IMG/VR virus record: IMGVR_UViG_3300032017_000001 | Coordinates: 21,152 to 85,151 of that record | DNA from: a virus | Lineage: Duplodnaviria; Caudoviricetes | Length of the DNA: 64,000 nucleotides | Strand: one strand, 5' to 3' | Shown: piece after piece, positions 15,506 to 47,230 of the stretch | Layout of the letters: every line of letters begins with the position of its first letter | Position numbering within the stretch: position 1 is the stretch's first letter | Position numbers and translations under genes: made by a program | The notes under the pieces: generated by a model | What the model was told of the DNA's origin: nothing | The model's database searches: none | The model's input: only the letters and a program-made list of their open reading frames with translations

Positions 15506-15568
15506 CCACCGCCCACGAGAAGCGCCCCGCCGGGCGAATCGGCGGGGCACCAAGCCCAAGGAGAACAC

Positions 15569-15874: not shown

Positions 15875-16009
15875 CCGGCGCCACAACTCCACAGTCCGGC
15901 GGTCGCGTCGAGGCCCCCGCTCCGCGACTGCCACCTAGGGCATCCAGCCCCACCAACCCCCCGGTCGGGGCTGGATGCCCGCCACCCCGCACACCCGAAA
16001 GCAGGAGAC

Positions 16010-18140: not shown

Positions 18141-18223
18141 CCGGCCGCCGTCGGGGCCCGGCCCACCCCAAGAGGGCCGGCCCCCGGCACCACCCAGCAC
18201 ACCACACCGTGAAGGAGCCAACC

Positions 18224-19859: not shown

Positions 19860-19963
19860 CCGCCGCCCTGTTCCTCGCCTGCCTCGGTTTCACCATCGTC
19901 CTCGCCGCGGTCGCCTTCGCGCTCATCACCCGCCGCGCCCGGCGCTCGGGAGGCGAGTCGTGA
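19856..19963 (+). CDS. Small membrane protein
   Basis: Single TM; coupled both ends. Confidence 0.5.
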   Translation: MTAALFLACLGFTIVLAAVAFALITRRARRSGGES

Positions 19964-20916
19964 ACGCATCCCTGACCCTGGTCGCCTCCGAAACGTGCGC
20001 ATGCCCGCCACACGTCCGCTACTCCTGCGGGCACTGCTGGCACGACCAGTGCCTCGACTGCGGGTTCTGCACCGTCGGAGGCTGCGTCTGCCACTGCGAG
20101 TACGGCCTCGGATTCAACCCCGGCATCGCGCCCACAGTGGGCCCCCAGTTCTGGCTCGGCGCCCACCACCCGCGCTGGCTCGCCACCACCGGCGTGCCAC
20201 TCATGGTGTCCCGCCGCTCCCTCGCCGGCCGCCGCAGCCTGCCGCGCGCCGCCGAACAGTGGGTCCTCGACTCCGGCGGATTCACCGAACTCTCCCTCAA
20301 CGGCGGATGGACGGTCACCGCGCACGTCTACGCCCGCGAAGTCGCCCGCTTCCGCGACGAGATCGGCCGCATGGTGTGGGCCGCACCGCAGGACTGGATG
20401 TGCGAAGACCACATCCTCGCCAAGACCGGCCTCACCGTCGCAGAACACCAGGCCCGCACCGTCGGCAACTACCTCGACCTCATGTCCATCGACGACACCC
20501 TGCCCATCATCCCCGCCGTCCAAGGGCAGACCATCGCCGACTACGAACACTGCCTCACCCTGTACGACCGAGCAGGCATCAACCTGACCACCCGGCCACT
20601 GGTCGGAGTCGGCTCCATCTGCCGCAGGCAATCCACCGCCGAAGCCTCCGCGATCCTCGGCACGCTCGCCGAAACCGGGCTCCGCCTACACGGCTTCGGC
20701 CTGAAACTCGACGGCCTGCGCACCAGCGCCGACCACCTTGCCTCAGCCGACTCCCTCGCCTGGTCCTACGACGCCCGCCGCTCCGCGCCGCTGCCGGGAC
20801 ACGACCACAAGTCCTGCGCGAACTGCGTGCACTGGGCGATGCGCTGGCGGCAGCGCGTCCTCGACGTCCTCCACGGCCCGCGCCAGATGGCCCTCACCTT
20901 GAGGGAGGCCGCGTGA
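19960..20916 (+). CDS. dpdA: DpdA/TGT-like 7-deazaguanine transglycosylase family protein with Cys-rich N-terminal extension
   Basis: VLDSGGF, APQDWMCE, IPAVQG, VGVGSICRR, LHGFG, SADSLAW match TGT/DpdA catalytic motifs. Confidence 0.75.
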   Translation: MNASLTLVASETCACPPHVRYSCGHCWHDQCLDCGFCTVGGCVCHCEYGLGFNPGIAPTVGPQFWLGAHHPRWLATTGVPLMVSRRSLAGRRSLPRAAEQWVLDSGGFTELSLNGGWTVTAHVYAREVARFRDEIGRMVWAAPQDWMCEDHILAKTGLTVAEHQARTVGNYLDLMSIDDTLPIIPAVQGQTIADYEHCLTLYDRAGINLTTRPLVGVGSICRRQSTAEASAILGTLAETGLRLHGFGLKLDGLRTSADHLASADSLAWSYDARRSAPLPGHDHKSCANCVHWAMRWRQRVLDVLHGPRQMALTLREAA

Positions 20917-21242
20917 CCTCCGTCCAGTACACGGCCCAGGCCGTGACTCCGCTCGTCGACTGGTACATCAACCAGCTCGCCACCCACGGCCTCGAGGTTG
21001 TCCTCGCCGCCCAGGCAGCCGCATGCATCGCCACCTGGTGCGCCATCGGAGCCCTCCTCCATGCCATCGACCGCTACCGCACCCGGCGCGCCACCCGCGC
21101 CGAACGCCGACAGACGACCCCGCCCCGCGACGACACCCCCCTGATCCCAACCGAACCCGGCTGCGACGACGACCTACTCCTCGCCTGCTGGGACGCCTGG
21201 AAAGCCGACACCACCCACACCCGCAAGGAGGACCAGCCGTGA
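20913..21242 (+). CDS. Hypothetical membrane-associated protein
   Basis: GTGA coupling; one TM. Confidence 0.55.
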   Translation: MTSVQYTAQAVTPLVDWYINQLATHGLEVVLAAQAAACIATWCAIGALLHAIDRYRTRRATRAERRQTTPPRDDTPLIPTEPGCDDDLLLACWDAWKADTTHTRKEDQP

Positions 21243-22048
21243 CCACCACCGCCGACCACACCGCCTCCCGCAACTGCTACCTCCGCGGCTGCCGACAGCC
21301 GGCATGCGTCGAAGTCGCCACCCGCTACACCAAACAACTCCGCGTAGAACACGCCCGCGGCCAATACCGGCTGACCGGCGCCACCCAAACCCGCCACCAC
21401 ATCGAACGCCTCATGGCAGCCGGCTGGACACAGAAGCAGATCGCCCAGGTCACCGGAGTCGAATCCGCGAGCATCCACCAGATCTACGTCGGCCACCAAG
21501 AGAAGACCGCGAACTGGCGCGCCGCCGCCATCCTCGCCGTCCCCATCACCAGCCCGCCCGCCGACCCCCACCACGTCGACGCCACCGGCACCCGGCGCCG
21601 CCTCCAAGCCCTCCGCGTCATCGGCCACCGACGCTACGACCTCGCCGCCGCACTCGGAATGACCGACGACAGGGTCAAACACATCACCAACGGCAAAACC
21701 CGGCGCGTCCCCAAGCACGAAGCAGACGCCATCGCCCGCCTGTACCGGCGCCTGTCCACCATCCCCGGACCCAGCCAGCAGACCGCCACCATCGCCCGCG
21801 ACAAAGGCTGGCACGGCCCCCTCGACTGGGAAGCGATCGACGACCCCGCATGCCAGCCGGAAACCGGACACCGCTCGCGCGCCAGAAGGGGCAGCCGAAT
21901 GGCGGTCGTCGACAACGAGCGAATCGCCGAGCTGACCGCGGCCGGTCGCACAGCACAGCAGATCGCCGACGAACTCGGCTGCCACAAGCGGACCGTCACC
22001 CGCGCCCGCGGACGCGTCACCCGCCAGACCCTTCAGGAGGCGGCGTGA
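21239..22048 (+). CDS. Multi-HTH hypothetical regulator with N-terminal Cys motif (paralog 1)
   Basis: CYLRGCRQPAC, DATGTRRRLQAL, GW..PLDW, C-terminal HTH (TAQQIADELGCHKRTV). Confidence 0.7.
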   Translation: MTTTADHTASRNCYLRGCRQPACVEVATRYTKQLRVEHARGQYRLTGATQTRHHIERLMAAGWTQKQIAQVTGVESASIHQIYVGHQEKTANWRAAAILAVPITSPPADPHHVDATGTRRRLQALRVIGHRRYDLAAALGMTDDRVKHITNGKTRRVPKHEADAIARLYRRLSTIPGPSQQTATIARDKGWHGPLDWEAIDDPACQPETGHRSRARRGSRMAVVDNERIAELTAAGRTAQQIADELGCHKRTVTRARGRVTRQTLQEAA

Positions 22049-22839
22049 CCATCACAGGCCGACCGCACGGCAATGCCAAATACCGCCTCGAGAAGTGCCG
22101 CTGCCTGCTGTGCTGCACAGCAGCCCGCGACTACGACAACAACCGGCGTCGCGCCATCGCCTACGGCCGCTGGCAGCCCTACGTCGACGCCGAACCCATC
22201 CGCGCCCACGTCCGCGCACTGAGCGAGTTCGGCATCGGCTGGATGCGCCTCGCCCGACTCGCCGGCGTACCCCGCGGCTCCATGTCGAAGCTCCTCTACG
22301 GAGACCCCCAGCGCGGCATGGCCCCGTCGAAGCGGATCCTGCCGAAGAACGCCGCCAAGATCCTCGCAGTCGAGCCCGCCCTCGAACACCTCGGAGACGA
22401 GGTCAGTATCGACGGCACCGGCACACGGCGACGGCTGCAAGCCCTGGCCGCCGCGGGCTGGCCGCACCGGCAACTCGCCGTCCGCCTCCGGATCGAGCCG
22501 GCGAACTTCAAGCCGATCATCCACGGGCAGCCGGGCCAGTTGGTGAAGGCCGGCACCCTGCGCGCCGTCACCGCCCTGTACGACCAGCTGTGGAACGTCG
22601 ACCCGCTCCAGCAGGGCGTGCGCCGCGACTTCTACGACCGGGCCCGCGACCAGGCCCGCCAAGCCGGCTGGGCCCCGGTCGGCGCCTGGGACGACGACCG
22701 CATCGACGACCCCGAAGCCTTCCCCGACTGGACCGGCTGGTGCGGCACACCCCAAGGCCGCCGCATCCACTACCGGATCAAGGTCCCCGTCTGCCAGCCC
22801 TGCCGCGAAGCCGCCAGCCAGCAGCAGACCGCCGCCTAG
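22045..22839 (+). CDS. Multi-HTH hypothetical regulator (paralog 2)
   Basis: HG..Y..CRC..C, DGTGTRRRLQAL, GWAPVGAWDDD..IDDP. Confidence 0.7.
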   Translation: MTITGRPHGNAKYRLEKCRCLLCCTAARDYDNNRRRAIAYGRWQPYVDAEPIRAHVRALSEFGIGWMRLARLAGVPRGSMSKLLYGDPQRGMAPSKRILPKNAAKILAVEPALEHLGDEVSIDGTGTRRRLQALAAAGWPHRQLAVRLRIEPANFKPIIHGQPGQLVKAGTLRAVTALYDQLWNVDPLQQGVRRDFYDRARDQARQAGWAPVGAWDDDRIDDPEAFPDWTGWCGTPQGRRIHYRIKVPVCQPCREAASQQQTAA

Positions 22840-22850
22840 CCCACGACAAA

Positions 22851-22870
22851 GGCCCCGCGGAAGCGGGGCC
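22851..22870. terminator. Hairpin terminator between convergent genes
   Basis: ggccccgc-ggaa-gcggggcc. Confidence 0.65.
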
Positions 22871-22899
22871 CGGAGGACGAACGAGAGGAGGAGGGGATG

Positions 22900-23121
22900 T
22901 CAGTCGGATTCTGCGGCCGGCTTCTTGCGGCGAACGATCCGGGGCTTCGGTTTGGGCATGTTGATGCCCTCGGCCTTGCAGTAGGCGCGGACGCGCGAGT
23001 GGATGTGGCGGCGAAGGTCGTCGGTGCGCGTGGTGCCGTCTTTAGCGCAGGCGCGGTCGTACAGATCCCACATCTCATCGTCGATGCGGATCATGCGACC
23101 CGGCGTCCCTCTCGTCGTCAT
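22900..23121 (-). CDS. Ribbon-helix-helix (CopG/Arc-like) protein
   Basis: GRMIRIDDEMWDLYDRAC...TRTDDLRRHI beta-alpha-alpha pattern. Confidence 0.7.
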   Translation of the reverse strand: MTTRGTPGRMIRIDDEMWDLYDRACAKDGTTRTDDLRRHIHSRVRAYCKAEGINMPKPKPRIVRRKKPAAESD

Positions 23122-23149
23122 GTCGACAGCCTAGCTGACCTGACAGCGG

Positions 23150-23230
23150 CTACACACCCCGCGTGGCTGACCGTTTACCGCGAACGTGTTGCTCCTGTAT
23201 TGCTTGTGCCTACACACCCCGTTATAGACT
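23150..23230 (+). promoter_or_regulatory. Two 12-bp direct repeats CTACACACCCCG (23150, 23210) and TAGACT -10 box (23225) upstream of replication gene
   Basis: Exact repeats 60 bp apart; second lies in promoter spacer. Confidence 0.6.
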
Positions 23231-23337
23231 GGCTCCACGCCAACCGGCCAAAGCGAGACCGGTTCGAGCCTCCATGAGGGCTGTCCCAAAACCAGTCATG
23301 ACCAGCACAGACACCCTCCTCGAGAAGAGATCCATAA

Positions 23338-24279
23338 ATGCCAAGCCGGTTCGAGTTCGAGCGCGCGATCAGGCGCAGCAGCCTTCCGCCCCTGGCGCGG
23401 CTGCTCGCCCTGACCGTTGCGACGTGGGCGGACGCCGAGACCGGCTCTATCTCCCGGCGTCACCAGCCGGCCCAATCCGTCCTACTGGAGGCGACCGGGA
23501 TGTCGAAGTCCGCCTTCCTGTCTCATCGCAAGACCCTCCTCGAGGAGGGCTGGCTGAAGTGCGAGTCCCCGGACCGCATCAAGGCCCAGAAGGAGCACGC
23601 CCAAAATGTCTATTCGATCCATATTCCTGACGGTAAGGCTCGGTCGGGAGGCGACCTAGCTAAAACGGACAAGCGCCCCGGAAAGCGACGCGAACCTAGG
23701 TCGGGAGACGACCTAGCCCTAGGTCGCCAGCCGACCCAGCCAAATGGGGCAGAACCCGCTAAGTCTGGATTGACCCTAGGTCGCCAGCCGACCACAAGAG
23801 TTCTTTCCTCTACTTCTCTCTCCTCTCTCCCTCCCGTGGACAACGGGCCGGACGGCAGCAGCGAGGAACGGATCCCGGACGCCTTCGCCTACATCCAGCC
23901 GCTCATCCGAGCCATGACCGACGCCGGACTCACCGTGTCGTGGCAAATGCAGGCCGAGGACTACCAAAGCGTCGCCCGCGTCATGCACCGAGCTGGCGTC
24001 GAAGCGATGGTCGGCTTCGCCCTCGAAACCAAGGCCAGCAGCCGCAAGTCGATCCGCTACGCCACGTTCTTCCTCCGTGGCGGCTGGCTGGGCCTGCCGC
24101 CCAAGAGCACCAAGCCCACACCGAGGCATGGCAGTACGCCTGGCAAGCCGCCGCACTGCGGCCACCCCGACTGCGACCCGGCCAGCAGGCTCCGCGAAAC
24201 CGAAGACGACAACGGCCTCCGCCGAGTCCACCCCTGCCCCGACTGCCACCCCAACGCGAAGAAAGGCCACGCCGCATGA
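23338..24279 (+). CDS. Replication initiator (lambda O-like, N-terminal wHTH)
   Basis: wHTH N-terminus, internal iterons, C-terminal Cys motif, directly upstream of DnaB. Confidence 0.75.
   Translation: MPSRFEFERAIRRSSLPPLARLLALTVATWADAETGSISRRHQPAQSVLLEATGMSKSAFLSHRKTLLEEGWLKCESPDRIKAQKEHAQNVYSIHIPDGKARSGGDLAKTDKRPGKRREPRSGDDLALGRQPTQPNGAEPAKSGLTLGRQPTTRVLSSTSLSSLPPVDNGPDGSSEERIPDAFAYIQPLIRAMTDAGLTVSWQMQAEDYQSVARVMHRAGVEAMVGFALETKASSRKSIRYATFFLRGGWLGLPPKSTKPTPRHGSTPGKPPHCGHPDCDPASRLRETEDDNGLRRVHPCPDCHPNAKKGHAA
23642..23835. repeat. Iteron-like repeats and pyrimidine tract inside initiator gene (probable origin)
   Basis: ggtcgggag(g/a)cgacctagc x2 (23642, 23699); ccctaggtcgccagccgacc x2 (23717, 23774); CT tract 23801-23835. 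Confidence 0.7.
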
Positions 24280-25637
24280 CCGAGCCCCTGTGGGAGCCCA
24301 ACGCCATCGCCGACGAACCGGCGATGCCCCACAACATCGAAGCCGAAAGGGCTGCCCTCGGCTCAATGTTCTTCGACCTCGCCGCCATCGACGCCCTCGA
24401 CCGGACCCTCTCCGGCGTCGAGGACTTCTACGAGCTGCACCACCAGATCATCTACCGGACCGTCCTCGGCATGTACTGCCGCGACCGCAAGCCGAAGATC
24501 GACCCCATCACCGTCGCTGCCGAGCTCCTCGCCAGCGGCGAGCTCGCCAAGGTCGGCGGCGCCGCCTACCTCCACCAGCTCGCCCAGTCCGTACCCGTCG
24601 TCGGCAACGCCGTCGGCTACGCGGCCATCGTCCGCGAACACGCCCAGCTCCGTGCAGTTCTCGCCGCCACCCGCAAAGCCAGCCAGCGCGTCCTCTCCGC
24701 CGCCAATACTGCATCCGAAATCCTCGAAGCCGCCATGGCCGACCTCCAGGCCGCCGCCAAAGGCGTCGACACCGTCGACGAGAAGCTGTCCGTCGCCGAC
24801 CGCTGGATGGGATTCATCGACGAACTCGAGGCCGGTCACGACCCGCGCGCCCTCGACACACCCTGGCCCGACCTCAACGACATCATCGAACTCAAGCCCG
24901 GCCAGCTCATCACCGTCGGCGCCGGCACCGGCCAGGGCAAGTCCCTGTTCGGCATGAACCTCGCCGCGCACGTTGCTCTCACCCGCGGCAAGCCAGCCCT
25001 CGTCGCCTCGATGGAGATGGGCGGCAGCGAACTCATGGCCCGCCTCACGGCAGCCGAAGCCGGAGTCGACGTCGACCACCTCATCCGCCGCAAGCTCCAG
25101 GCGGCCGACTGGGAGAAAGTCTTCCGAGCCGCGCCGAAGATGCAGAACGCCGGCAACTTCATCCTCGACGACTCCCCGAACCTCACCCTCGGGAAGATCC
25201 GTGCTCGCGTCCGCTGGATGGCCGCATCCGGCTGGGCCCCGGCCATCGTGGTCGCCGACTACCTGCAGCTGTTGACGCCTGAGTCGACCGGCAAGAAGGA
25301 GCGCACACGCGCCAACGAGGTCGCCGAACTGTCCCGCGGACTGAAGCTCCTCGCGATGGAGTTCGAACTCCCCGTCGTCGCGCTCGCCCAGTTCAACCGC
25401 GGCGCGGTCGGCCGTCAGCCGATGGTGTCCGACTTCAAGGACTCCTCCAGCATCGAGCAGGACTCCAACGTGATCGTCCTGATGCACCGGCCGCTCGCCG
25501 AGGACGGCACGGACACCGGTCCGCGGGCCGGTGAGATCGACCTCATCGTCGCGAAGAACCGCAACGGCGCCTCCGGCCGCATCGTCTCCCTGGCCTTCCA
25601 GGGCCGGTTCGCCCGACTCCGGTCGATGGCCGGGTGA
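24276..25637 (+). CDS. dnaB: Replicative DNA helicase
   Basis: PHNIEAERAALG, GAGTGQGKS (Walker A), VVADYLQL, LAQFNR, SSSIEQDS, AKNRNG. Confidence 0.95.
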   Translation: MTEPLWEPNAIADEPAMPHNIEAERAALGSMFFDLAAIDALDRTLSGVEDFYELHHQIIYRTVLGMYCRDRKPKIDPITVAAELLASGELAKVGGAAYLHQLAQSVPVVGNAVGYAAIVREHAQLRAVLAATRKASQRVLSAANTASEILEAAMADLQAAAKGVDTVDEKLSVADRWMGFIDELEAGHDPRALDTPWPDLNDIIELKPGQLITVGAGTGQGKSLFGMNLAAHVALTRGKPALVASMEMGGSELMARLTAAEAGVDVDHLIRRKLQAADWEKVFRAAPKMQNAGNFILDDSPNLTLGKIRARVRWMAASGWAPAIVVADYLQLLTPESTGKKERTRANEVAELSRGLKLLAMEFELPVVALAQFNRGAVGRQPMVSDFKDSSSIEQDSNVIVLMHRPLAEDGTDTGPRAGEIDLIVAKNRNGASGRIVSLAFQGRFARLRSMAG

Positions 25638-26377
25638 CCGCCATGACCATCCAGCGCGACTGGCACTGCGCTTCAGCCGGTGACATAGCGGCCGAGCGCC
25701 TCGAGCAGCACACCGTTCGCCGCAGCCACATACCCGGCCAGCCCGGCGCCCTCGCCGACGGCATGACTCACGAAGCCCTGCCGACCTCCTACGCCGGCAC
25801 CACCTTCCGGTCCGCGCTCGAAGCGTCCTGGGCCGCCACCCTCGACACCCTCGACATCGCCTGGGAGTACGAGCCCGAGACGATCGCCCTGCCGTCCGGA
25901 GCCACCTACATCCCCGACTTCCGCCTGCCGGACATCGGCTGCTGGCTTGAGGTCAAAGGCCCCGGCGTCCCCCGTGTCGAGAAGGCCTACGAGTTCGGCG
26001 AGAGCCTCGCCTGCGGCCACCCCATGTGGGAGTGCGCTTGCCGCTGGCCGGGCGGAGAGCTCGTCCTCATCGGCCACGAGCCCAGGCCGTACAGCGCCTG
26101 GGGCGACCCGGAGATCGACGTCCAGAACTACTGGATCGCCGCCAACGTGCAGCGCCGCCACGGTGGCCACCCCGACTGGACGTCCACCCGCGGCCGGGCC
26201 GCATGGCTCACCCGGTGCGCGGACTGTGACCGCGGCACCTGGTTCGACAGGCCCAAATGCCGGGCCTGCGGCGGCCCTCTCGCCGACTGCTACGGCTATC
26301 GGCCTGGCGAACCGGGCCTCGAGTTCCGTCGTATTCGCGGTCCCGTCCGAACCCACGACACCGAGGAGAACCAGTGA
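25634..26377 (+). CDS. PD-(D/E)XK nuclease-like protein
   Basis: FRSALEASWA...WEYEPE...YIPDF...WLEVKG. Confidence 0.75.
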   Translation: MTAMTIQRDWHCASAGDIAAERLEQHTVRRSHIPGQPGALADGMTHEALPTSYAGTTFRSALEASWAATLDTLDIAWEYEPETIALPSGATYIPDFRLPDIGCWLEVKGPGVPRVEKAYEFGESLACGHPMWECACRWPGGELVLIGHEPRPYSAWGDPEIDVQNYWIAANVQRRHGGHPDWTSTRGRAAWLTRCADCDRGTWFDRPKCRACGGPLADCYGYRPGEPGLEFRRIRGPVRTHDTEENQ

Positions 26378-26832
26378 CCACGACCACCGACATCGCCCGC
26401 GCCCACGGTCACACCGGGCCGACCCGCTGCCAGGACTGCGGCACCACCGAGAACCTGCACGTTGTCCTGTGGTCCGACCCGAGGACCGGCGAGAGCGGAA
26501 CCCACCTGGAGTGCTGTACCTGCGGCATTGCCGCCGGTGACCCGATCTGCGTTCACGCCGAATGCGAGCCCGATGAGCCCGACGAGCCGGACCCGGAGCC
26601 CGTAGAGCCCGGACCGATCGTCCGCGTCCACCACCGCCCCGCCGGCTGGGTGCTGCCCGACTTCACCGACCTCGCGGACTGCACGACCAACTTCCACCGC
26701 GCCCAGGACGGCCGTCCCGCCTGCACTGACACCGCCGTGTGGAAGGTCGTCGAAGACCACGGTCTGCATTTGACCATCGGCTTCTACTGCGACGCCGATC
26801 TGCCCGCCGAACACCGAGAGGACGCCGCCTGA
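26374..26832 (+). CDS. Cys-rich hypothetical protein
   Basis: GTGA coupling. Confidence 0.6.
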   Translation: MTTTTDIARAHGHTGPTRCQDCGTTENLHVVLWSDPRTGESGTHLECCTCGIAAGDPICVHAECEPDEPDEPDPEPVEPGPIVRVHHRPAGWVLPDFTDLADCTTNFHRAQDGRPACTDTAVWKVVEDHGLHLTIGFYCDADLPAEHREDAA

Positions 26833-39906: not shown

Positions 39907-39998
39907 GCTCTAGAGCAATCGACGCCAGTCTTCTTGCAGGAATCCCGGCAAGGGCTCATTGACCAGCAGCGATGTAGAGCGGGTAGCGTTGCTCTAGA
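39907..39998. promoter_or_regulatory. GCTCTAGAGC palindromic operators upstream of GntR gene
   Basis: Perfect copy 39907-39916, half/degenerate copies 39974-39980 and 39989-39998. Confidence 0.6.
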
Positions 39999-40021
39999 TG
40001 AATCCGTCCCAAGGAGAGCCC

Positions 40022-40777
40022 GTGTCACGCAAGCCCGGCGAGCCGCACAAGTACCGGGAGATCGCCGACGACCTGCGTAGGCGAATCAATGCCGGGGAGT
40101 TCGGCGAGAAGCGCAAGCTCCCGTCCGAGCGCGACCTCCGCGCACAGTACGACGTCTCACAGATGACCGTGCGGCAGGCGCTCGGTGTCCTGCGGGACGA
40201 AGGCCTGATCGAATCCCGCGTCGGCTCCGGCTGGTACGTCGCAGAGTGGCGTCCCATCGTCCGCAACGCGCTGCAGCGGCTCTCTGCCGCTCAGTGGGGC
40301 GAAGGCCGATCCATGTGGGACGTCGATATCGATGACCGCCGCCTTGAGGCGCGCGACGTGCAGATCGAGCTGATCGACTGCCCGGCCGACGTTGCCCGCG
40401 CCCTGGACCTCGAAGAGGGCGAGCCGGTCTGGCGCCGGGACCGGCGCTACGTCGTCGACGGGGAAGTCGTCATGCGAGCGACGTCGTACATCCCAGACGG
40501 ACTCGCACGCGGTACGCGGATCACGCAGATCGACTCGGGGCCGGGCGGCACCTATGCCCGGCTTCGTGAAGCGGGGCACGGGCCGGTGCAGTTCCGCGAG
40601 CAGCTGCGGTGTCGACTCGCGACGCCAGCCGAGGTGGACGACCTACGCCTCGCTGCGGGTGCTCCCGTGGTGGAGCAGCACCGCTCGGCAATGCGCGCGG
40701 ACGGGTATGTCGTGGAAATCAACCGAATGGTTCTGGACGCGTCGAGATTCCTCTTCGTGTACGACTTCCCTGCCTGA
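40022..40777 (+). CDS. GntR/HutC-family regulator with UTRA domain (KorSA/TraR-like)
   Basis: YREIADDLRRRI..GE...KLPSERDL..YDVSQMTVRQAL; UTRA region. Confidence 0.9.
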   Translation: MSRKPGEPHKYREIADDLRRRINAGEFGEKRKLPSERDLRAQYDVSQMTVRQALGVLRDEGLIESRVGSGWYVAEWRPIVRNALQRLSAAQWGEGRSMWDVDIDDRRLEARDVQIELIDCPADVARALDLEEGEPVWRRDRRYVVDGEVVMRATSYIPDGLARGTRITQIDSGPGGTYARLREAGHGPVQFREQLRCRLATPAEVDDLRLAAGAPVVEQHRSAMRADGYVVEINRMVLDASRFLFVYDFPA

Positions 40778-40789
40778 CCTGCCGCTTCT

Positions 40790-40820
40790 GGCCCTCACCC
40801 CTTGGGGTGGGGGCCTTTTT
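40790..40820 (+). terminator. Rho-independent terminator
   Basis: ggccctcaccc-cttg-gggtgggggcc followed by TTTTT. Confidence 0.85.
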
Positions 40821-40843
40821 GGTGTCTCGTAATCCACCTTTCC

Positions 40844-40870
40844 GCTCTAGAGCTATTGATTGCTCTAGCG
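40844..40870. promoter_or_regulatory. GCTCTAGAGC operators upstream of transfer operon
   Basis: Perfect copy 40844-40853, degenerate attgctctagcg 40859-40870. Confidence 0.6.
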
Positions 40871-40922
40871 CACTCTGCTTCTATCTAGGTGTTCACCCCA
40901 GTCGACCGCAGGGGAGCACCTA

Positions 40923-41150
40923 GTGACACCTGTCTCCGTCGCCCCTCCGGGCGACTACCTGACCACCGGAGAGGTCGCCCGCCGCATAGGCGGCACCTCC
41001 CAGCACGTGCGGCAGCTCATCAAGTCAGGCCGGCTCGCGGCGATCGATATCGCCAAGGGAAACGGCCGGCCCCGCTTCCGAATCTCCGAGGCCGCGCTCG
41101 CCGACTTCCTCCGCGACGCGACCGTCACCGCCACGGAGGTGGCCTCATGA
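40923..41150 (+). CDS. Excisionase-like HTH protein
   Basis: YLTTGEVARRIG....VRQLIKSGRL.A...RFRISEAAL. Confidence 0.85.
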   Translation: MTPVSVAPPGDYLTTGEVARRIGGTSQHVRQLIKSGRLAAIDIAKGNGRPRFRISEAALADFLRDATVTATEVAS

Positions 41151-41413
41151 CCAGCACCACCGCCCCGACCGCCCCGCTTCCCTCCGCCGCCGCGCTGGCC
41201 CTGGCCCGCCTGGAGTCGGCGTTCCCGGTCATCCAGGCCGTCACCGTGTACGAGACGGCGGCGGTGCACCGCGCCCAGCTCGCCGCGCTCGCCGAGGCCG
41301 ACAAGCTGTCGGACCTCGACGCGGACTCCCTGGCCCACGCCGAAGACCTGGCCGCCGGCGCCCACGCCACCCTCGCCAACGCCGGCCGCCTCGACCTCAT
41401 CGGCGGTGCCTGA
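41147..41413 (+). CDS. Hypothetical protein
   Basis: ATGA coupling. Confidence 0.6.
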   Translation: MTSTTAPTAPLPSAAALALARLESAFPVIQAVTVYETAAVHRAQLAALAEADKLSDLDADSLAHAEDLAAGAHATLANAGRLDLIGGA

Positions 41414-41649
41414 TGGCCCGCCCGTCCCGCCGCGAGATGAACGAACTCGCCGCCGACCGCGAGAAGTGCGCCGCCCGCAGCGAACGGAACGCCCAGTCCG
41501 CCAAGGCCGCCGCCAACGACCCCACGCTCCCGGAGACCACCCGCAAGCAGGCCGCGGCCACCGTGCCGATCGCGCTGCGCCACGCGGCGGAGTACCGAGA
41601 GGAAGCCGCAGCCCTCCGCGAGGGCCGCATCCCGGGGGAGGACTGGTGA
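41413..41649 (+). CDS. Hypothetical protein
   Basis: TGATG coupling. Confidence 0.6.
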   Translation: MARPSRREMNELAADREKCAARSERNAQSAKAAANDPTLPETTRKQAAATVPIALRHAAEYREEAAALREGRIPGEDW

Positions 41650-41810
41650 GCGCCCGCGAGATCCTGGCTGACTTCCCGGCTGGTGGCCCGCGCGGCAGCT
41701 GGCCGGCGGAGGAGAAGGCCGCCGAGCTCACCGCCTCCGGCACCCCCGCCACCGTCCGCATGGACCTCGACTCCGACCGGTTCATCGTCGTCCCGGAGCG
41801 TGAGTCGTGA
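41646..41810 (+). CDS. Small hypothetical protein
   Basis: GTGA coupling. Confidence 0.55.
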   Translation: MSAREILADFPAGGPRGSWPAEEKAAELTASGTPATVRMDLDSDRFIVVPERES

Positions 41811-41929
41811 GCCCCGCCGAGCAGGGCGCCGCCGCGAAGGCCCTCGCCGCGCAGGCCCGCCAGCGGACCGAAGCCGCGAAGGCCGCCGCCGAGGCTGCCG
41901 AAGCAGCCCGACGAGCCCGGCAGCGCTAA
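41807..41929 (+). CDS. Ala-rich micro-ORF
   Basis: GTGA coupling. Confidence 0.45.
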   Translation: MSPAEQGAAAKALAAQARQRTEAAKAAAEAAEAARRARQR

Positions 41930-42031
41930 CCCCCTAGCCGCCGCGGGGTGGCGGATGTCCACGGCTCCCCTCCGTCCCGCCACCCCGCGGCCACCACCAC
42001 TTCCCACCGCACCCCTTGAAAGGGCACAGCC

Positions 42032-42271
42032 ATGTCTCCGTACCTGTTCTCCGCCGACCACGGCCGCACCGACCTGGGCGAGCGGTTCCGCACCTCGATC
42101 ACCGTCGCCGAGGCGCTGACCCTGTCGATCTCCGAGGTGTTCGACGAGTACGCCGACGCCCGCAAGTCCGGCGACCTGGCCCGTATGGCCGCCGTCCGCG
42201 ACTACGCCGCCCACCTCGACTCCGAACTCGCCGACGAGCTGGACGGCTTCGACTACCCGGCCGCCGCCTAA
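42032..42271 (+). CDS. Small acidic hypothetical protein
   Basis: ORF track; preceded by long hairpin. Confidence 0.6.
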   Translation: MSPYLFSADHGRTDLGERFRTSITVAEALTLSISEVFDEYADARKSGDLARMAAVRDYAAHLDSELADELDGFDYPAAA

Positions 42272-42359
42272 CCCCACAGGCCGCCGCCGCGCGATCCGCT
42301 ACCCCCCGTCTCACGCGGCGGCACCCCAACCCGCACCACCAACCGAGAGGAACCCCGAA

Positions 42360-42530
42360 ATGGCCTTCTTCAAGCGCGACATCAAGCCCGTCACCGTCGC
42401 CGGTCAGCCCCGCTTCAAGATCGAAGCCGACCCGTCCGCCATGGCGTTCAGCACGCCCGAGGAAGCCGAGAAGCAGCGGGATCTGCTCGACACCTTCAAG
42501 CCCCTGGACGACGGCCGCCGCGAGGACTGA
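42360..42530 (+). CDS. 56-aa cassette protein (MAFFKRD...)
   Basis: GAGAGG RBS, read manually (below ORF-track cutoff). Confidence 0.65.
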   Translation: MAFFKRDIKPVTVAGQPRFKIEADPSAMAFSTPEEAEKQRDLLDTFKPLDDGRRED

Positions 42531-42538
42531 CCCCACCA

Positions 42539-42585
42539 GCCCCGGCTAAGCCGCGACGGTGTCCGATCGACTCGGGCCCGGGGCA
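42539..42585 (+). ncRNA. tRNA-like intergenic element 1
   Basis: GCCCCGG/CCGGGGC-A acceptor-like stem; GTCCG-ATCGACT-CGGGC T-arm. Confidence 0.65.
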
Positions 42586-42626
42586 CTGCACCACCCACCT
42601 GACCACCAACCCGAGAGGAACCCGCC

Positions 42627-42830
42627 ATGGGCCTGTTCAGCCGCAAGTCGTCCGAGCCCCGCACGGCTACGACCCCCGCCACCCAGACCGACCAGTACCG
42701 CCTGAAGGCCACCGGCCGCCGGGTCACCGTCCTCGAGTACCTCAGCGGCGGTGACGTCCGTATCGCCATGGACAACGGCCACATCACACGGGACGACATC
42801 GTCAGCTCCCGCGACATCACCCCCGCCTGA
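42627..42830 (+). CDS. 67-aa cassette protein (MGLFSRK...)
   Basis: GAGAGG RBS; ORF track. Confidence 0.7.
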   Translation: MGLFSRKSSEPRTATTPATQTDQYRLKATGRRVTVLEYLSGGDVRIAMDNGHITRDDIVSSRDITPA

Positions 42831-42838
42831 CCCCTGCA

Positions 42839-42888
42839 GCCCCGGCATTCACGCCGTGAGGGCGCCGGATCGACTCCGGCCCGGGGCA
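42839..42888 (+). ncRNA. tRNA-like intergenic element 2
   Basis: GCCCCGG/CCGGGGC-A; GCCGG-ATCGACT-CCGGC. Confidence 0.65.
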
Positions 42889-42931
42889 CGCACCGCAGCC
42901 CACCTGATCACTCACCCGAGAGGACCAAATC

Positions 42932-43150
42932 ATGACCGAGCCCACCACCCCCGAGCCCGTCACCTACCACTGGATCGCCACCGTGCAGACCGGCCGGGGG
43001 CGGATCGAGACCAACGACGGTCCGGTCAGCGCGATCCCGGGCGTCCACACGCACACCTCCACGTACCAGGCCGTCCTCGCCAACCTCACCGAGAAGTACG
43101 GGACGGACTTCGGCCTCCTGTTCCTCGCCCTCGAGCCCGACCAGCTGTAG
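42932..43150 (+). CDS. 72-aa cassette protein
   Basis: GAGAGG RBS; ORF track. Confidence 0.7.
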   Translation: MTEPTTPEPVTYHWIATVQTGRGRIETNDGPVSAIPGVHTHTSTYQAVLANLTEKYGTDFGLLFLALEPDQL

Positions 43151-43157
43151 CCCGCCA

Positions 43158-43204
43158 GCCCCGGACCCGGCGTGACGCTGCCGGATCGACTCCGGCCCGG
43201 GGCA
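43158..43204 (+). ncRNA. tRNA-like intergenic element 3
   Basis: GCCCCGG/CCGGGGC-A; GCCGG-ATCGACT-CCGGC. Confidence 0.65.
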
Positions 43205-43244
43205 CGCACCGCCCACCCGAACCCCAACCCGAGAGGAGCCCGTC

Positions 43245-43436
43245 ATGGGCCTGTTCACCCGCAAGGTCTCCGAAGCCGCAACCGAGGCCGCCGACACCGT
43301 CGCGTCCGCCGCTATCCGCGCCGGCCGGAAGGTCGCCGGAGAGAAGGGTGCCGACGCCGCGAACGCGATGACCGGCCGCCGCTACGCCCGCTGCCCCGAG
43401 GGCTGCGCCAGCAGCGACCCCAACCACAGCCACTGA
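43245..43436 (+). CDS. 63-aa cassette protein (MGLFTRK..., C-terminal CPEGC..H.H)
   Basis: GAGAGG RBS; ORF track. Confidence 0.7.
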   Translation: MGLFTRKVSEAATEAADTVASAAIRAGRKVAGEKGADAANAMTGRRYARCPEGCASSDPNHSH

Positions 43437-43448
43437 CCAGAACACCCA

Positions 43449-43501
43449 GCCCCGGCCCGGCCGATCTCGGGTCTACGCCGCAAAGGCAGGCCGGGGCGCC
43501 A
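43449..43501 (+). ncRNA. Variant element 4 (same acceptor-like stem, ends GCCA)
   Basis: GCCCCGG 43449-55 / CCGGGGC 43491-97, then GCCA; different internal hairpins. Confidence 0.45.
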
Positions 43502-43542
43502 CCCCTGACCACCCCATCCGCACCGACCTAGGAGAGGTCGCA

Positions 43543-43755
43543 ATGCTCCGCATCGTCCTGTGGGCGCTCGCTGCCCTGTACCTGCTCGTCGTCGGCCTGA
43601 CCCCGGCCGCACTCGCCCCCATCACGCTCGCGTTCGCCGGTCTGGCCGCCGTGATCGCCGCCGTCCCGCCGTCCGTGCTGCTCCTCGCCGCCGCCGTCGT
43701 CTGGCTCAAGCGCAAGCCCGCCACCGCCAAGCCCGCCACCACGAGGGCCGCCTGA
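43543..43755 (+). CDS. Small membrane protein (Spd-like)
   Basis: Two TM helices, basic tail. Confidence 0.7.
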   Translation: MLRIVLWALAALYLLVVGLTPAALAPITLAFAGLAAVIAAVPPSVLLLAAAVVWLKRKPATAKPATTRAA

Positions 43756-43949
43756 TGGCCCGGCGCAACGAAGCCGACGCCGAGTGCGGCGCAGGCCGCA
43801 CCGACGACAACCGCGGCCCCAAGCCCACCCGCGCCTGGCAGCCGACCGCCCCCGGCGAGAACTGGTTCAACGGGATCACCCCCCAGCCGTCCGCCCGCCA
43901 GGGCGAATCCACCCGCCTGTACCGACGCGCCCGCGTCACCGCCAGCTAG
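43755..43949 (+). CDS. Small hypothetical protein
   Basis: TGATG coupling. Confidence 0.5.
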   Translation: MARRNEADAECGAGRTDDNRGPKPTRAWQPTAPGENWFNGITPQPSARQGESTRLYRRARVTAS

Positions 43950-43970
43950 CCCAGAGAGGAATCGATCCCG

Positions 43971-45113
43971 ATGGACTGGAACGAGCAGCGCCGCCTGGAC
44001 AAGGCCGCCGCCGCCGACCAGAAGCGCAAGGACGCCGACGCCGAGGCTGACCGCCGGGCCCGCGCCCGCGCCGCCGAAGACGAGCGGCGCCGCGCCAACC
44101 GGCAGGCGGACAAGGCGGAGGCGCGCGCCGAGAAGGTCCAGAAGCGCCGGGAGAAGCGCGAACGGCGCCGCGAACGCGCCCAGGCGTGGACGAAGAACAC
44201 CACCCCCGCAGTCGTCTACCGGCGCGGCACCCTCGCCCTGGTCATCGCGTCCGCGCTGGCGTCCCTGCCCGCGCAGATCATGCACTTCGTCTCGATCTCC
44301 GCCATGCTGCTGCCCCTGCCGTTCGCACTCGAAGGCGCGGCCTGGGTGATGGCCGCCGGCGTCGCCTACGCCGACGAGAAGCGACTCCCGGCCTGGGTGC
44401 GGTGGCTGCTGCGCGGACTGTGCCTCACCGCCGCCGGATACGCCGCCTCCATCAACTACCAGTACGGCGCGCACATCGACCCGGCCGTCGGGTACGGCCT
44501 CGCCGCGGTCACCCTGCTCGGGCCGCTGTTCTTCGAGGTGCGGCAGTGGGTGTCCACGCTCACGGTCGACGCCGGGGAGAAGAAGCGCCGGGCGGAGGAG
44601 AAGAAGCGGGCGAAGCACGAGAAGGCCCGCCGCGAGCACCACAAGGACGTCGTCCAGCTCGCGGAGCGTCTGGTGTCCGCCGCCCCGTATGGAGCGCTGG
44701 CCCTCGAGGACGCCTTCGTCGCCGCGTGGGAGATCTTCTACGGCACGTCAACCCCCGGCATGACCCCCGCGATGCACGCCCAGCAGCTCGCCTCACGGCA
44801 GTCCCTCGCCGCCGCGATGGATGAAGCGAACGGGGCGCCGATAAGCGCTCGTGGGCGTCTCCTTCAGATGCTCCACCCGGCGCCCTCAGTGCTCATCTCG
44901 CAGCCTGGATCATCGCAGGTCGCGAACCAAGTCCCCCCCACCCAGAAGAGGCCGTCTGAGGTGCCCTCGAACGGTACGCCCAGGGGGGCCCGCCCGAAGC
45001 CCGTTCCGCCCCGCCGCACGAAGGGCGACACCCCCCGCTTCCACACCGCGGCAAAGGTCGTCGCAGCCGACACCGCCCGCAAGCACGCCACCGTCAACGG
45101 CCACCACCACTGA
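43971..45113 (+). CDS. SpdB/DUF2637-like multi-TM spread protein with coiled coil
   Basis: Charged coiled coil, four TM helices (LPLPFALEGAAW), upstream of TraB. Confidence 0.7.
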   Translation: MDWNEQRRLDKAAAADQKRKDADAEADRRARARAAEDERRRANRQADKAEARAEKVQKRREKRERRRERAQAWTKNTTPAVVYRRGTLALVIASALASLPAQIMHFVSISAMLLPLPFALEGAAWVMAAGVAYADEKRLPAWVRWLLRGLCLTAAGYAASINYQYGAHIDPAVGYGLAAVTLLGPLFFEVRQWVSTLTVDAGEKKRRAEEKKRAKHEKARREHHKDVVQLAERLVSAAPYGALALEDAFVAAWEIFYGTSTPGMTPAMHAQQLASRQSLAAAMDEANGAPISARGRLLQMLHPAPSVLISQPGSSQVANQVPPTQKRPSEVPSNGTPRGARPKPVPPRRTKGDTPRFHTAAKVVAADTARKHATVNGHHH

Positions 45114-45130
45114 CCCTCGAAGGACACCCC

Positions 45131-47230
45131 GTGAGCATCGAGACGACCCCGTCCAGCAGCCCCGACCCGGAGTGGGAGAAACTGATCGCCGGCTACCTCT
45201 CCGGCCCGGAGAAGACTCCCGCCGCGCCCCGCCCGTCCGCCGTCGACCTGATGGGCGACACGCCTCTCACCCCCGCCTGGACGAAGACCCGCAGCGGCTG
45301 GAAGGGCCGCGCCGAGGTCGGCCGCGTCAACACCGTCCGCGCCTTCCGCAAGTGGCTGCGCCGACAGGCCACCGAGCACGGGCACGCCGCCCAGCTCTAC
45401 CGAGGTGCCGCCCGCATCACCGTGTGGATCCGCGGCGTCGAAGGCGTCGAGGTCGCGAAGGCCAAGCACGAAGCGCGCCGAGCGCACAAGGAGTACCGGC
45501 AGGCGCAGTGGGCCAACGGGAAGCGGCTCATGCCCGGCAGCGTCAAGGACAAGCTGTCCAGGGAGATGGACAAGGCCGCCGAAGACTCCGAGCGGGCCAT
45601 GAACAAGTACCGCAAGGCCCGCAAGGACGCCCGGACCCTGCAGTCCCTTCGTGCCGCCGCGGCCATCACCCCGCTCGCCGCCATCGAGGGCGCCGGCCTG
45701 TACATGGGCGGCGGCCCCGGCGGGCTCCTGGCCGCCGGCCTCACCCTCACCGGGCTCACCCTCATCGGCCGCCGCACCACCACGGGCGAACTGTGGTCCG
45801 ACCGCGACGCGAAGATCGGCGACGGGGACCGGATGACCGAGACCATGCTGAACCGCGTCTACCTGGACGCCAAGGTCATCGGCTCCGACGACGTACTGAA
45901 GCTGACCACCCCGTGCACCCTCACCGCAGACGGCAAAGCCTGGCAGGTCGTCTTCCAGTTGCCGTCCGGTATCCCCGCCAAGAAGGCGCTCGGTGCACGC
46001 GAAGGCATCGCCAACGGGTTCGGGGTGTCCGTGCAGCAGGTCCACCAAACCCGCGGTAACCGCGAGGACACCATCCACCTGCGGGTGTCGCTCAAGCTGC
46101 CGTTCTCGTCCAAGCCGAACCGCGGCCCGCTGCTCGACGCGGAGCAGGTCAACCTGTGGAAGCCCATCCGCATGGGCGTCAACCTGCGCGGCGAGGAAGT
46201 CGTCACCTCGTGGGTCGAGCGGTCCGGCCTGTTCGGCGGAGAGCCCGGCTCCGGCAAGTCCGCCGCGGCCAACGACCTCCTGCTCGCCGCCGCGCTCGAC
46301 CCGACCGTGCGCATGTACCTTGCCGACGGCAAGGCCGGCGCCGACATCACCCCGTTCGAACCGATCGCCACCATGTACGACACCGACGGCGACCCCGGCA
46401 AGCTCCTCGAGATCCTGCAGTACATGTGGGACGTCGAGATCAAGGAGCGGCGGGCCCTCGCCAAGGAGCACGGGTCGCGGAAGCTGACCGAGGCGATGGC
46501 CGCCGTCGACCCGCGGGTCTGCCTGGCCGTGCTCCTCGTCGACGAGTGGTCGTCCTACGGTGCCGCCGCCGACCAGAAGACCCGCCAGGAGATGGAGCGG
46601 CTGCTGCGGCTGATCGTCCAGCAGGGCCGGGCGCTCGGCATCATCAGCCTCGCCGCCACGCAGAAGCCCGACGGCGACTCGGTGCCCACGGGCATCCGCG
46701 ACATCCTGTCGATCCGCTGGGCGATGCGCTGCCTCACCCCGCAGGCCTCCGACACGATCCTCGGCCAGGGCTACGCCTCCGCCGGCCACAACGCCCAGGA
46801 CATCCTCAAGTCCCAGCGCGGTGTGGGCATCTACATGGACGGCGAAGGCGCCGAGCCGGAGCTGGTCCGCGGCGACTACTACGACGACGAGGAAGTCGCC
46901 GCCATCCTGGGGCGTGCCTACAACCTGCGGCAGGAGGCGGGCACGCTGCCGCTGGGCCCGCTCGACCGGCTGCGCGCCGCCGACACCGACGGGGCGGTCC
47001 TCGCCGACCTGCTCGCCATGTACGACGGCGTCGAGATGCTGCCCGCAGCCCGGGTCCTCGAGAGGCTCACCGAGGCCGGCCACACGGTCACTGCGGACCG
47101 GCTGGCCGTGCTGGTGCCGCGCACCGAGGACGAGAAGCGGCGGCAGGACATCGACGGCAGCCGGGTGTCCGTCTACCCGCTTACCGCGGTCCGCCGGGCC
47201 GTGCTCGACCGATACGGAATCACCGCCTGA
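45131..47230 (+). CDS. traB: TraB-like FtsK/SpoIIIE DNA translocase
   Basis: TM pair, GEPGSGKS Walker A, LLVDEW Walker B, QQGRALGI..ATQKP, short C-terminal wHTH-like domain. Confidence 0.85.
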   Translation: MSIETTPSSSPDPEWEKLIAGYLSGPEKTPAAPRPSAVDLMGDTPLTPAWTKTRSGWKGRAEVGRVNTVRAFRKWLRRQATEHGHAAQLYRGAARITVWIRGVEGVEVAKAKHEARRAHKEYRQAQWANGKRLMPGSVKDKLSREMDKAAEDSERAMNKYRKARKDARTLQSLRAAAAITPLAAIEGAGLYMGGGPGGLLAAGLTLTGLTLIGRRTTTGELWSDRDAKIGDGDRMTETMLNRVYLDAKVIGSDDVLKLTTPCTLTADGKAWQVVFQLPSGIPAKKALGAREGIANGFGVSVQQVHQTRGNREDTIHLRVSLKLPFSSKPNRGPLLDAEQVNLWKPIRMGVNLRGEEVVTSWVERSGLFGGEPGSGKSAAANDLLLAAALDPTVRMYLADGKAGADITPFEPIATMYDTDGDPGKLLEILQYMWDVEIKERRALAKEHGSRKLTEAMAAVDPRVCLAVLLVDEWSSYGAAADQKTRQEMERLLRLIVQQGRALGIISLAATQKPDGDSVPTGIRDILSIRWAMRCLTPQASDTILGQGYASAGHNAQDILKSQRGVGIYMDGEGAEPELVRGDYYDDEEVAAILGRAYNLRQEAGTLPLGPLDRLRAADTDGAVLADLLAMYDGVEMLPAARVLERLTEAGHTVTADRLAVLVPRTEDEKRRQDIDGSRVSVYPLTAVRRAVLDRYGITA

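Follow-up and report, generated by a model that had tools for sequence, protein, structure and literature searches.

Three of the spacers between small genes in a 64,000-nucleotide stretch of DNA filed as viral (IMG/VR record IMGVR_UViG_3300032017_000001, positions 21,152 to 85,151; the whole stretch is called the window below) carry copies of one structured element, named E1 to E3. We show here that these copies belong to a discrete, sequence-conserved family of tRNA-like cis elements in mRNA, for which we found neither an Rfam family nor a published description. The fold of the element is under selection, and the element is very probably a structured RNA of the sense strand. The copies lie in a Streptomyces conjugation module of the GntR/Spd/TraB type known from the integrative and conjugative elements of actinomycetes (AICEs), plasmids and phage-plasmids, not in a phage operon. 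As to function, we tentatively propose that E1 to E3 are copies of a conserved cis-acting RNA element in the polycistronic tra/spd mRNA, and that this element would be read by tRNA-processing enzymes.

Three copies of one element in the window

The window was scanned with a covariance model, R1, built from an alignment (A2) of 25 copies of the element, and with a sequence-free descriptor defined as a stem of 7 bp directly adjoining a stem of 5 bp that has an NTCRRNY loop. The three copies and the leader that follows the first of them are as follows.

42539..42585, + strand: element E1, made of GCCCCGG / GCCG-CGA-CGGT hairpin / GTCCG-ATCGACT-CGGGC / CCGGGGC / A (R1 65.9 bits, E 4e-10; descriptor match)
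42839..42888, + strand: element E2 (R1 71.9 bits, E 3e-11; the Rfam tRNA model aligns exactly there)
43158..43204, + strand: element E3 (R1 70.5 bits, E 5.6e-11)
42586..42626, + strand: C/A-rich leader with the ribosome-binding site CCGAGAGGA (42611-42619; repeat families D2-D4)

An earlier note on this DNA had placed three like-built spacers at these coordinates, 7-8 nucleotides (nt) after stop codons, and the sequence reproduces them exactly. E1 starts 8 nt past the TGA at 42528-42530, E2 8 nt past the TGA at 42828-42830 and E3 7 nt past the TAG at 43148-43150, and in each case the next ATG follows after 40-43 nt. The single architecture described in that note is also seen: all three copies show, in the same order, GCCCCGG, a linker of 4-7 nt, a small hairpin, a 5-bp stem with an ATCGACT loop, then CCGGGGC directly and an A. 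This arrangement stands above chance by three approaches. A repeat search groups E1 to E3 as one family (D1) and the leaders as families D2-D4; the R1 scan of the window returns only these three copies (65.9-71.9 bits, E 3e-11 to 4e-10), the next match having an E value of 0.15; and the descriptor, run on both strands, finds exactly E1 to E3 and nothing in reversed controls. The leader type held in common, another claim of the note, is present in all five spacers of this gene run, where families D2-D4 cover a C/A-rich stretch ending in a CCGAGAGGA-type ribosome-binding site.

A fold under selection

Across the family, the consensus reads GCCCCGG, a linker of 4-7 nt, the hairpin G(C/G)CG-YGA-(C/G/U)G(G/C)(C/U), a 5-bp stem with the loop ATCRRMT, its return strand, CCGGGGC, a purine and a C. 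As modelled, the fold is a three-way junction: within a closing stem of 7 bp, which resembles an acceptor stem, lie a tiny YGA hairpin and, after it, a hairpin resembling a T-arm. No base separates this second hairpin from the 3' strand of the closing stem, and behind that strand comes the unpaired purine. The middle hairpin has 3-4 bp and a loop of 3-5 nt.

Covariation was measured on 78 distinct sequences against 500 shuffles. Paired cells made up 94.5% of the alignment versus 88.7% in the shuffles, none of which reached the observed value, and pairing fell to 64% or less when the partners were slid by 1-3 columns. Changes on both sides of a pair were found in four of the five T-stem pairs and in two of the four hairpin pairs. 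The earlier note had reported a covarying T-stem and a middle hairpin that keeps its pairing, and had looked to homologs for covariation; both patterns are compensatory in this larger set. The T-stem is paired in 99.5% of cells and helix 1, the closing stem, in 99.1%. The latter is near-invariant in sequence and covaries once, as GCTCTGG/CCAGAGC in locus L015. G-U cells outnumber A-C cells on the sense strand (32 vs 8). Moreover, flanking genes lie on the same strand as the element in 66 versus 12 cases upstream and 78 versus 7 downstream. The wobble excess and the gene orientation together argue for a fold on the transcribed strand, as RNA or as sense-strand single-stranded DNA (ssDNA), rather than for a palindrome in duplex DNA.

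Conservation extends outside the helices. Among 109 copies, position -2 is C in 100, position -1 is A or C, the discriminator position 73 is A or G in 107, and position 74 is C in 108. The loop falls into a few classes, namely ATCGAAT (44 copies), ATCGACT (37), ATCGGAT (15), ATCAGAT (6) and others. At the DNA level, A54 gives an invariant GATC in the loop throughout these copies, and the junction of T-stem and acceptor always contains CCCGGG. Some divergent forms were also noted. Two 59-nt variants on the minus strand (L093:6167-6225 and L093:6502-6560) have an extra arm of 5-6 bp and would form a linker-less four-way junction, a mini cloverleaf, with z about -3. Another minus-strand copy, L009:6370-6426, matches R1 weakly (25 bits); its loop is the canonical TTCGACT, its middle arm is longer and its tail reads G-CCA.

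A family found almost only in Streptomyces and close relatives

The search for relatives started from an exact 20-mer of the 3' half of the element, which is present in 21 IMG/VR contigs. By blastn the element was found in Streptomyces plasmids, among them pFP11 and one of 32 kb that matches in four places, and R1 brought out further, more diverged copies in the same IMG/VR and plasmid loci. A pattern in which the T-stem and the loop were left free matched at least 120 stretches of a species-level genome collection, nearly all of them Streptomyces among the matches listed. On 80 listed loci, R1 confirmed 80 Streptomyces-locus matches (E 1e-10 to 6e-3), and it rejected the pattern matches from Pseudomonas, Planctomycetes and similar organisms. 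The steps proposed in the earlier note (aligning the spacers, building a covariance model and searching Streptomyces DNA) have thus led to a family of at least 135 distinct canonical copies in the 1.18 Mb of Streptomyces DNA collected. Among the genomes searched, confirmed copies are almost only in Streptomyces and close relatives.

The element is sparse. The exact pattern occurs in 44 of 401 sampled Streptomyces species genomes, with 0-3 matches per genome and none in the reversed control. When three whole genomes were scanned with R1 (150 of about 30,000 candidates per genome being scored), each gave two copies, and overall there are about 1-4 copies per genome or mobile element. Copies are 47-50 nt long; a read-through coding extension was considered and rejected, as the copy lengths differ by 1-3 nt. 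Rfam 15 has no family that reaches its gathering score on the element and nothing near threshold, and a full-text literature search returned neither a description of it nor a published transcript map; a catalogue of about 8,500 structured-RNA candidates from IMG/VR (PMC10690425) could include it unnamed. The earlier note had also asked whether the spacers match a known terminator or REP (repetitive extragenic palindromic) family. Rfam offers no such match, and the terminator scan and the features of REP sequences, given below, agree with this.

Genes around the element

Genes within 1-14 kb of the element were collected for each locus. Markers of a conjugation module, that is TraB-like, GntR (KorSA-type), Spd, DUF6284, NUDIX (Pif-type) or DUF6251 proteins, were present in 70 of the 88 loci, and most of the remaining loci were short or had their match near an edge. 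The polycistronic phage mRNA of the earlier note is therefore not upheld, since the family sits in Streptomyces conjugation modules and a blastn search of 50,697 phage records with the element and its leader gave no match.

Over 111 instances, the distance from a stop codon to the start of the element has a median of 11 nt (interquartile range 8-14, minimum 5), and the next start codon lies 30-49 or 70-140 nt downstream of the element. The flanking proteins are small, with medians of 92 and 88 amino acids (aa), and diverse, 173 of them forming 88 clusters; no single partner gene was found among the loci collected. Gene order is mosaic: upstream cluster 4 is paired with downstream clusters 3, 10, 16 and 64, and cluster 6 with clusters 8 and 11. 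That cassettes would vary between conserved spacers, a check put forward in the earlier note, is borne out by these upstream families followed by differing downstream families. Copies that have their upstream gene in common resemble each other more (0.81/0.92) than copies with a common downstream gene (0.74/0.87, about background). Since similarity tracks the upstream gene, the element appears to travel with the 3' end of that gene.

Likeness to tRNA

Of the Rfam models, RF00005 for tRNA matches the sense strand best, with 15.6 bits (E 0.33, at 42839-42888) and 17.0 bits (E 0.13), values obtained with a small search space and to be read against a gathering threshold of 29 bits. The alignment runs over model positions 1-71 on the exact boundaries of the element. 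Only the D and anticodon arms are deleted from it, 15 and 18 positions being replaced by 4 and 7 nt. Neither arm is present in the element, and ARAGORN called no tRNA gene at E1 to E3. The 7-bp acceptor-like stem with its unpaired discriminator and the stacked 5-bp T-stem with G53-C61, both traits of t-elements (see below), are found, and G53-C61, the last T-stem pair typical of tRNA, is present in 76 of 78 sequences. The earlier note had likened the element to the top half of a tRNA with a TTCGANT loop. The 7-bp acceptor, the 5-bp T-stem, the discriminator and the end-to-end RF00005 alignment sustain the comparison; the loop departs from it, having A54 and in some copies G58.

Genuine tRNA sequences come close to the element in several places. 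In a blastn search with one element, a match covered the T-arm and acceptor 3' strand of a Sinorhizobium tRNA-Asn, with 26 of 28 positions of the 3' half identical. One of the two 59-nt L093 variants, searched against Rfam, has tRNA-Sec as its best match on its own strand. A 74-nt Streptomyces tRNA whose anticodon is CAA and which lacks a long variable arm (L163:1449-1522, the same as G003:C1 at about 2,303,411) has the 5' acceptor strand GCCCCGG, as in the element, a T-arm GTCGG-TTCGAAT-CCGAC that differs from the element solely at position 54, and A73 followed by C. It is possibly the ancestor or the model of the top half of the element. The region around this tRNA has a lower GC content, 64-69%. 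An attachment (att)-type duplication was looked for around it and none was found, and a 5'-half pattern for a tRNA ancestor did no better than the control.

The 3' end of tRNA-Arg(CCU) is duplicated by AICEs as att repeats. Compared by eye, it is alike with the element at about 23 of 28 positions, which is suggestive only. Repeats of a tRNA-Arg 3' end surround element copies at 6.306-6.345 Mb of G003:C1 and 4.436-4.472 Mb of G001:C1, as would be expected of att repeats if AICEs had integrated in tRNA-Arg genes there. On the antisense strand of one copy (L042:4601-4651, minus strand), RF04354 (Plastid-ycf2 5'UTR) matches with 22 bits (E 0.005); its consensus resembles an antisense tRNA T-arm.

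The conjugation module in the window

The genes and other features of the module are listed below, GC3 being the GC content at third codon positions.

39998..40777, + strand: GntR-type regulator gene at the head of the module (open reading frame (ORF); annotation of the syntenic plasmid gene: GntR family regulator)
40790-40815, + strand: canonical terminator, hairpin and T-run, directly after the GntR gene (terminator scan)
42032..42271, + strand: orfA, 79 aa, GC3 0.95, no Pfam match, homologues in 7 loci
42283..42322, + strand: plain GC-rich hairpin between orfA and orfB (fold -25.5 kcal/mol, z -3.33; leader in repeat family D2)
42360..42530, + strand: orfB, 56 aa, GC3 0.91, no Pfam match
42627..42830, + strand: orfC, 67 aa, GC3 0.93, homologues in L025, L101 and L063
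42932..43150, + strand: orfD, 72 aa, GC3 0.99
43245..43436, + strand: orfE, 63 aa, GC3 0.91, start and leader in common with orfC (repeat D3)
43449..43501, + strand: divergent or degenerate copy with a GCCA tail (closing stem alike, extended to 9 bp; interior altered; fold -32.6 kcal/mol)
43543..43755, + strand: orfF, 70-aa membrane-type protein (ORF list, GC3)
45131..47230, + strand: TraB-type FtsK/SpoIIIE DNA translocase (Pfam PF01580, E 2.1e-8; the syntenic plasmid gene is annotated traB)

The six small genes orfA to orfF (56-79 aa) fill 42032-43755 and are separated by five spacers of 88-106 nt. A GC3 of 0.91-0.99 in all the small ORFs is the coding signature of Streptomyces, and we therefore take them for real genes. 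From orfF on, the genes are tightly coupled, with spacers of -1, 21 and 17 nt, and the run continues via a 380-aa protein to the TraB-type translocase, the hallmark of Streptomyces conjugation. In the syntenic plasmid region, the annotated order is GntR, DUF2637, small hypotheticals, traA and traB. Homologues of the window ORFs are scattered singly across different plasmids, and the blastn relatives of the window include Streptomyces plasmids of about 85-99 kb. Backbone genes for a YqaJ-like recombinase, DpdA (7-deazaguanine DNA modification), a DnaB helicase and a C5 cytosine methylase lie at 14893-28589. With its TraB module, these backbone genes and the 85-99 kb plasmid relatives, the window as a whole looks like a plasmid or a phage-plasmid. 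ARAGORN called a tRNA-Ala(GGC) at 41470-41549 on the minus strand, antisense inside the plus-strand ORF 41413-41649; this call, without a match to the Rfam tRNA model, is probably a false positive.

The small genes are found next to the element elsewhere too. In locus L010 a canonical element lies 27 nt past the orfA homologue, and in the three loci with orfC homologues it lies 16-21 nt beyond the end of the aligned stretch. The earlier note had called the downstream ORFs unrelated, which does not hold for orfC and orfE: both start with MGLF-RK, and a direct repeat of 68 nt with 85% identity (D3, 42588-42655 vs 43206-43273) covers their leader, ribosome-binding site and first 10 codons. This repeat points to duplication or gene conversion between cassettes.

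Two of the five spacers have no canonical copy. The note had counted 43449-43501 as a fourth variant that keeps the 7-bp stem and ends in GCCA. The sequence and its GCCA tail are real; the closing stem has 9 bp, not 7, and R1 found no match there in its scan of the window. By this model, the variant is outside the family. It occupies the spacer in which relatives have a canonical copy, ending 43-46 nt before the orfF homologue in L007, L014, L016, L017 and L104. Similarly, by positional comparison, the plain hairpin at 42283-42322 is at the place where a relative has the tRNA-like element.

What may read the element

We then considered how such an element could act. In the reading that we prefer, still tentatively, the element is taken for the top half of a pre-tRNA. 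G1 would be the cutting site of host RNase P, and trimming at or after the discriminator would fall to an activity that processes tRNA 3' ends, either RNase Z or exonucleases stopped by the stem. The operon message would be split into single-gene segments, whose ends, and hence whose stabilities and outputs, could be set individually. We prefer this pre-tRNA mimicry to a generic stability knot because the junction has the geometry of tRNA and because G53-C61, the purine discriminator and C74 are conserved, none of which a plain hairpin needs.

Several observations weigh against it. The RF00005 scores of 15.6-17.0 bits are far below the 29 required for membership of the tRNA family. Compared with UUCRANY, the loop fits at positions 55-57 and 60, but 107 of 109 copies have A at position 54 and about 20% have G at position 58, so that a true T-loop fold is uncertain. 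A54 can pair with U60 and, in most loop classes, U55 with A59, and RNAfold favours a stem of 6-7 bp that leaves a loop of three or five bases; such pairing would lengthen the acceptor/T stack, whose 12 bp are what RNase P and RNase Z measure. The CCA-type tail, which the earlier note saw in its fourth variant, is not family-wide: an encoded RCCA tail occurs in 8 of 109 copies, these copies all standing ahead of one or two related genes. The orthologous spacers with a plain hairpin or a degenerate copy indicate that likeness to tRNA may be dispensable. A cut at G1 would strip the upstream cistron of a protective 3' structure. Finally, RNase P does not need the near-invariant sequence of the closing stem, C-2 or C74, and these hint at another, sequence-specific reader.

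The closest competitor, possible though less probable than pre-tRNA mimicry, is a generic intercistronic element that acts on stability or translation. Here the fold would be a stable RNA knot against 3'-to-5' exonucleases and/or would modulate termination, sitting at the mRNA-channel entrance of the terminating ribosome, and the tRNA resemblance would reflect ancestry, from a tRNA or an att-site remnant. E. coli REP sequences within about 15 nt of stop codons, which modulate termination, provide the parallel. This explanation accommodates much of what speaks against processing, that is the plain hairpins or degenerate copies in orthologous spacers, the departure of the loop from a T-loop and the exposure of upstream mRNA by a cut at G1, and it agrees with a start at a median of 11 nt past the stop and never less than 5 nt. 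The similarity of copies that follows the upstream gene (0.81/0.92 vs 0.74/0.87) would fit as well, but the much shorter spacer on the upstream side would produce such linkage in any case. Moreover, a barrier alone does not account for a GATC loop, a closing stem, C-2 and R73-C74 that are near-invariant in more than 100 copies while the T-stem covaries freely. Indeed, the near-invariant sequence of the closing stem fits neither the tRNA-mimic nor the generic-stability reading well.

One extension of pre-tRNA mimicry would address this point, and we regard it as unlikely. The system could be true bacterial tRNA punctuation in which the excised RNAs of about 48 nt are stable and have a function of their own, being read by a sequence-specific partner of the acceptor-like stem. 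A host tRNA-binding enzyme, a toxin or a synthetase-like factor could for example fill this role, and such a partner would account for the near-invariance of the closing stem, C-2, C74 and A54 beside the covariation of the other helices.

A little less probable still is a binding site, as RNA or DNA, for a sequence-specific protein of the mobile element or the host, with a role in regulation, plasmid positioning or DNA translocation. The almost invariant closing stem, C-2, C74 and loop GATC would suit such a site, as would the ATCGAAT class, which in DNA is a near-perfect 7-bp palindrome. However, the tolerance of G-U pairs is limited to one strand and changes are compensatory, both of which speak for folding as a single strand, and orientation follows transcription. 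The known 8-mer recognition motif of TraB differs from the element too. With 88 clusters among 173 flanking proteins, no single partner gene emerges in the loci collected. Compared with their published sequences, the known Streptomyces plasmid cis sites, namely the sps site CGTCACGTGACG (PMC4170104) and the TraR repeats TTTGGTACACAACT (PMC4447253), show no likeness to the element.

The earlier note had offered recombination joints of an integron-like cassette array and tRNA decoys as its own alternatives, and both find little support. A recombination joint, in which the element would mark the boundary of exchangeable gene cassettes as an attC-like target or a homology patch, is improbable. The strong mosaicism of upstream and downstream families, the window ORF homologues found singly on different plasmids and the layout of an ORF with a 3' element, as in an integron cassette, would all agree with it. 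On the other hand, mosaicism is usual for Streptomyces plasmids, and the attC core sites (RYYYAAC/GTTRRRY) are not found, the ends being GCCCCGG/CCGGGGC. It is the bottom strand that folds in attC sites, but the wobble pairs of the element point to the top strand (32:8), and the T-arm features would be left without explanation. A supply of ssDNA is not evident either, as Streptomyces conjugation transfers double-stranded DNA and the element is present on pFP11, which is described as replicating from a rep/iteron locus (PMC3583192). A single-strand origin (sso) was likewise considered and rejected, the element also being on that plasmid with its rep/iteron locus.

A transcription terminator or attenuator between the small genes is very improbable: a GC-rich closing stem directly downstream of stop codons would be in its favour, but there is no U-tract (positions 75-87 are C-rich), so that E1 to E3 are not hairpins of the intrinsic type, terminators do not typically have a branched fold with conserved loops, and E1 to E3 all go unflagged in the scan, which does flag the canonical terminator after gntR at 40790-40815, the sole terminator-like site in 40700-45200. 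That the downstream genes have no visible promoter also argues against termination, weakly, as the scan consensus is of the E. coli type. The least likely reading is a decoy, whose excised RNAs would soak up a tRNA-directed defence nuclease or toxin of the host during establishment; the invariant acceptor-like stem and the entry of these mobile elements into new hosts would fit, but an RNA with no anticodon arm is not usable for known anticodon nucleases, copies are few (1-4 per mobile element), no link to defence or anti-defence genes was seen in the loci collected, and placement behind each small gene would be left without explanation.

Relation to known systems

The nearest parallel is in plant mitochondria, where t-elements define mRNA ends via RNase P and RNase Z (Forner et al. 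2007, PMC1920247). Both are tRNA-like folds that do not decode, have a T-arm motif besides the acceptor-like stem and lie beside reading frames in long transcripts. However, t-elements are organellar and the present element is bacterial; their ends coincide with experimentally mapped mRNA ends; they keep GGTTCRANYCC where the element has GGATCRRMTCC; and the element, unlike them, is one tightly conserved sequence family on mobile DNA. With tRNA itself (RF00005, Streptomyces tRNAs), the element has in common the 7-bp acceptor stem, the abutting 5-bp T-stem with G53-C61, a 7-nt loop xTCRRxT and the purine discriminator, and it differs by A54 and by lacking the D and anticodon arms.

Other RNAs make use of the same mimicry. 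In MALAT1/mascRNA, a tRNA-like fold is cut by RNase P, which makes the upstream 3' end and frees a small tRNA-like RNA; this system is eukaryotic, and its upstream end is guarded by a triple helix. In bacteria, tmRNA has the acceptor/T half only. Its tRNA-like domain, the 4.5S RNA precursor, the C4 antisense RNA of phages P1/P7 and some operon mRNAs are non-tRNA substrates of RNase P (partly covered in PMC3985003). The element is like these in its tRNA top-half mimicry, which in those cases recruits RNase P. They are, however, single-copy RNAs or unrelated sites, and none of them recurs as a module between the genes of a conjugation operon.

Among repeated elements, REP and BIME (bacterial interspersed mosaic element) sequences of enterobacteria lie just after stop codons, stabilise upstream cistrons and can affect translation termination. 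The element is likewise structured, repeated and placed just after stops. However, REP/BIME sequences are simple hairpins, present in hundreds of copies per chromosome and linked to RAYT (REP-associated tyrosine) transposases, whereas the element has about 1-4 copies per genome, mainly in conjugation modules; a simple palindrome in tens to hundreds of dispersed copies is not what we find. Integron attC sites are similar in being structured elements at the 3' end of small, promoterless, same-strand genes in a mosaic array, and different in that the element has no IntI-type core sites, folds on the other strand and has conserved interior loops.

Streptomyces plasmids share very little sequence (PMC4170104). 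It is therefore unexpected that their transfer operons have in common an element of 48 nt, conserved in AICEs, plasmids and phage-plasmids of many species, and this element provides a handy marker for finding such operons. The modular spacer, made of the structure, the C/A-rich leader and a ribosome-binding site, could moreover serve as an insulator part in the engineering of Streptomyces operons. Punctuation of the tRNA type is established for mitochondria and a few eukaryotic RNAs. If host tRNA enzymes do cut the element, it would be a case of mRNA punctuation by tRNA mimics in a bacterial operon, and it would give a handle on how the tiny, uncharacterised genes of the spd region are expressed in set ratios.

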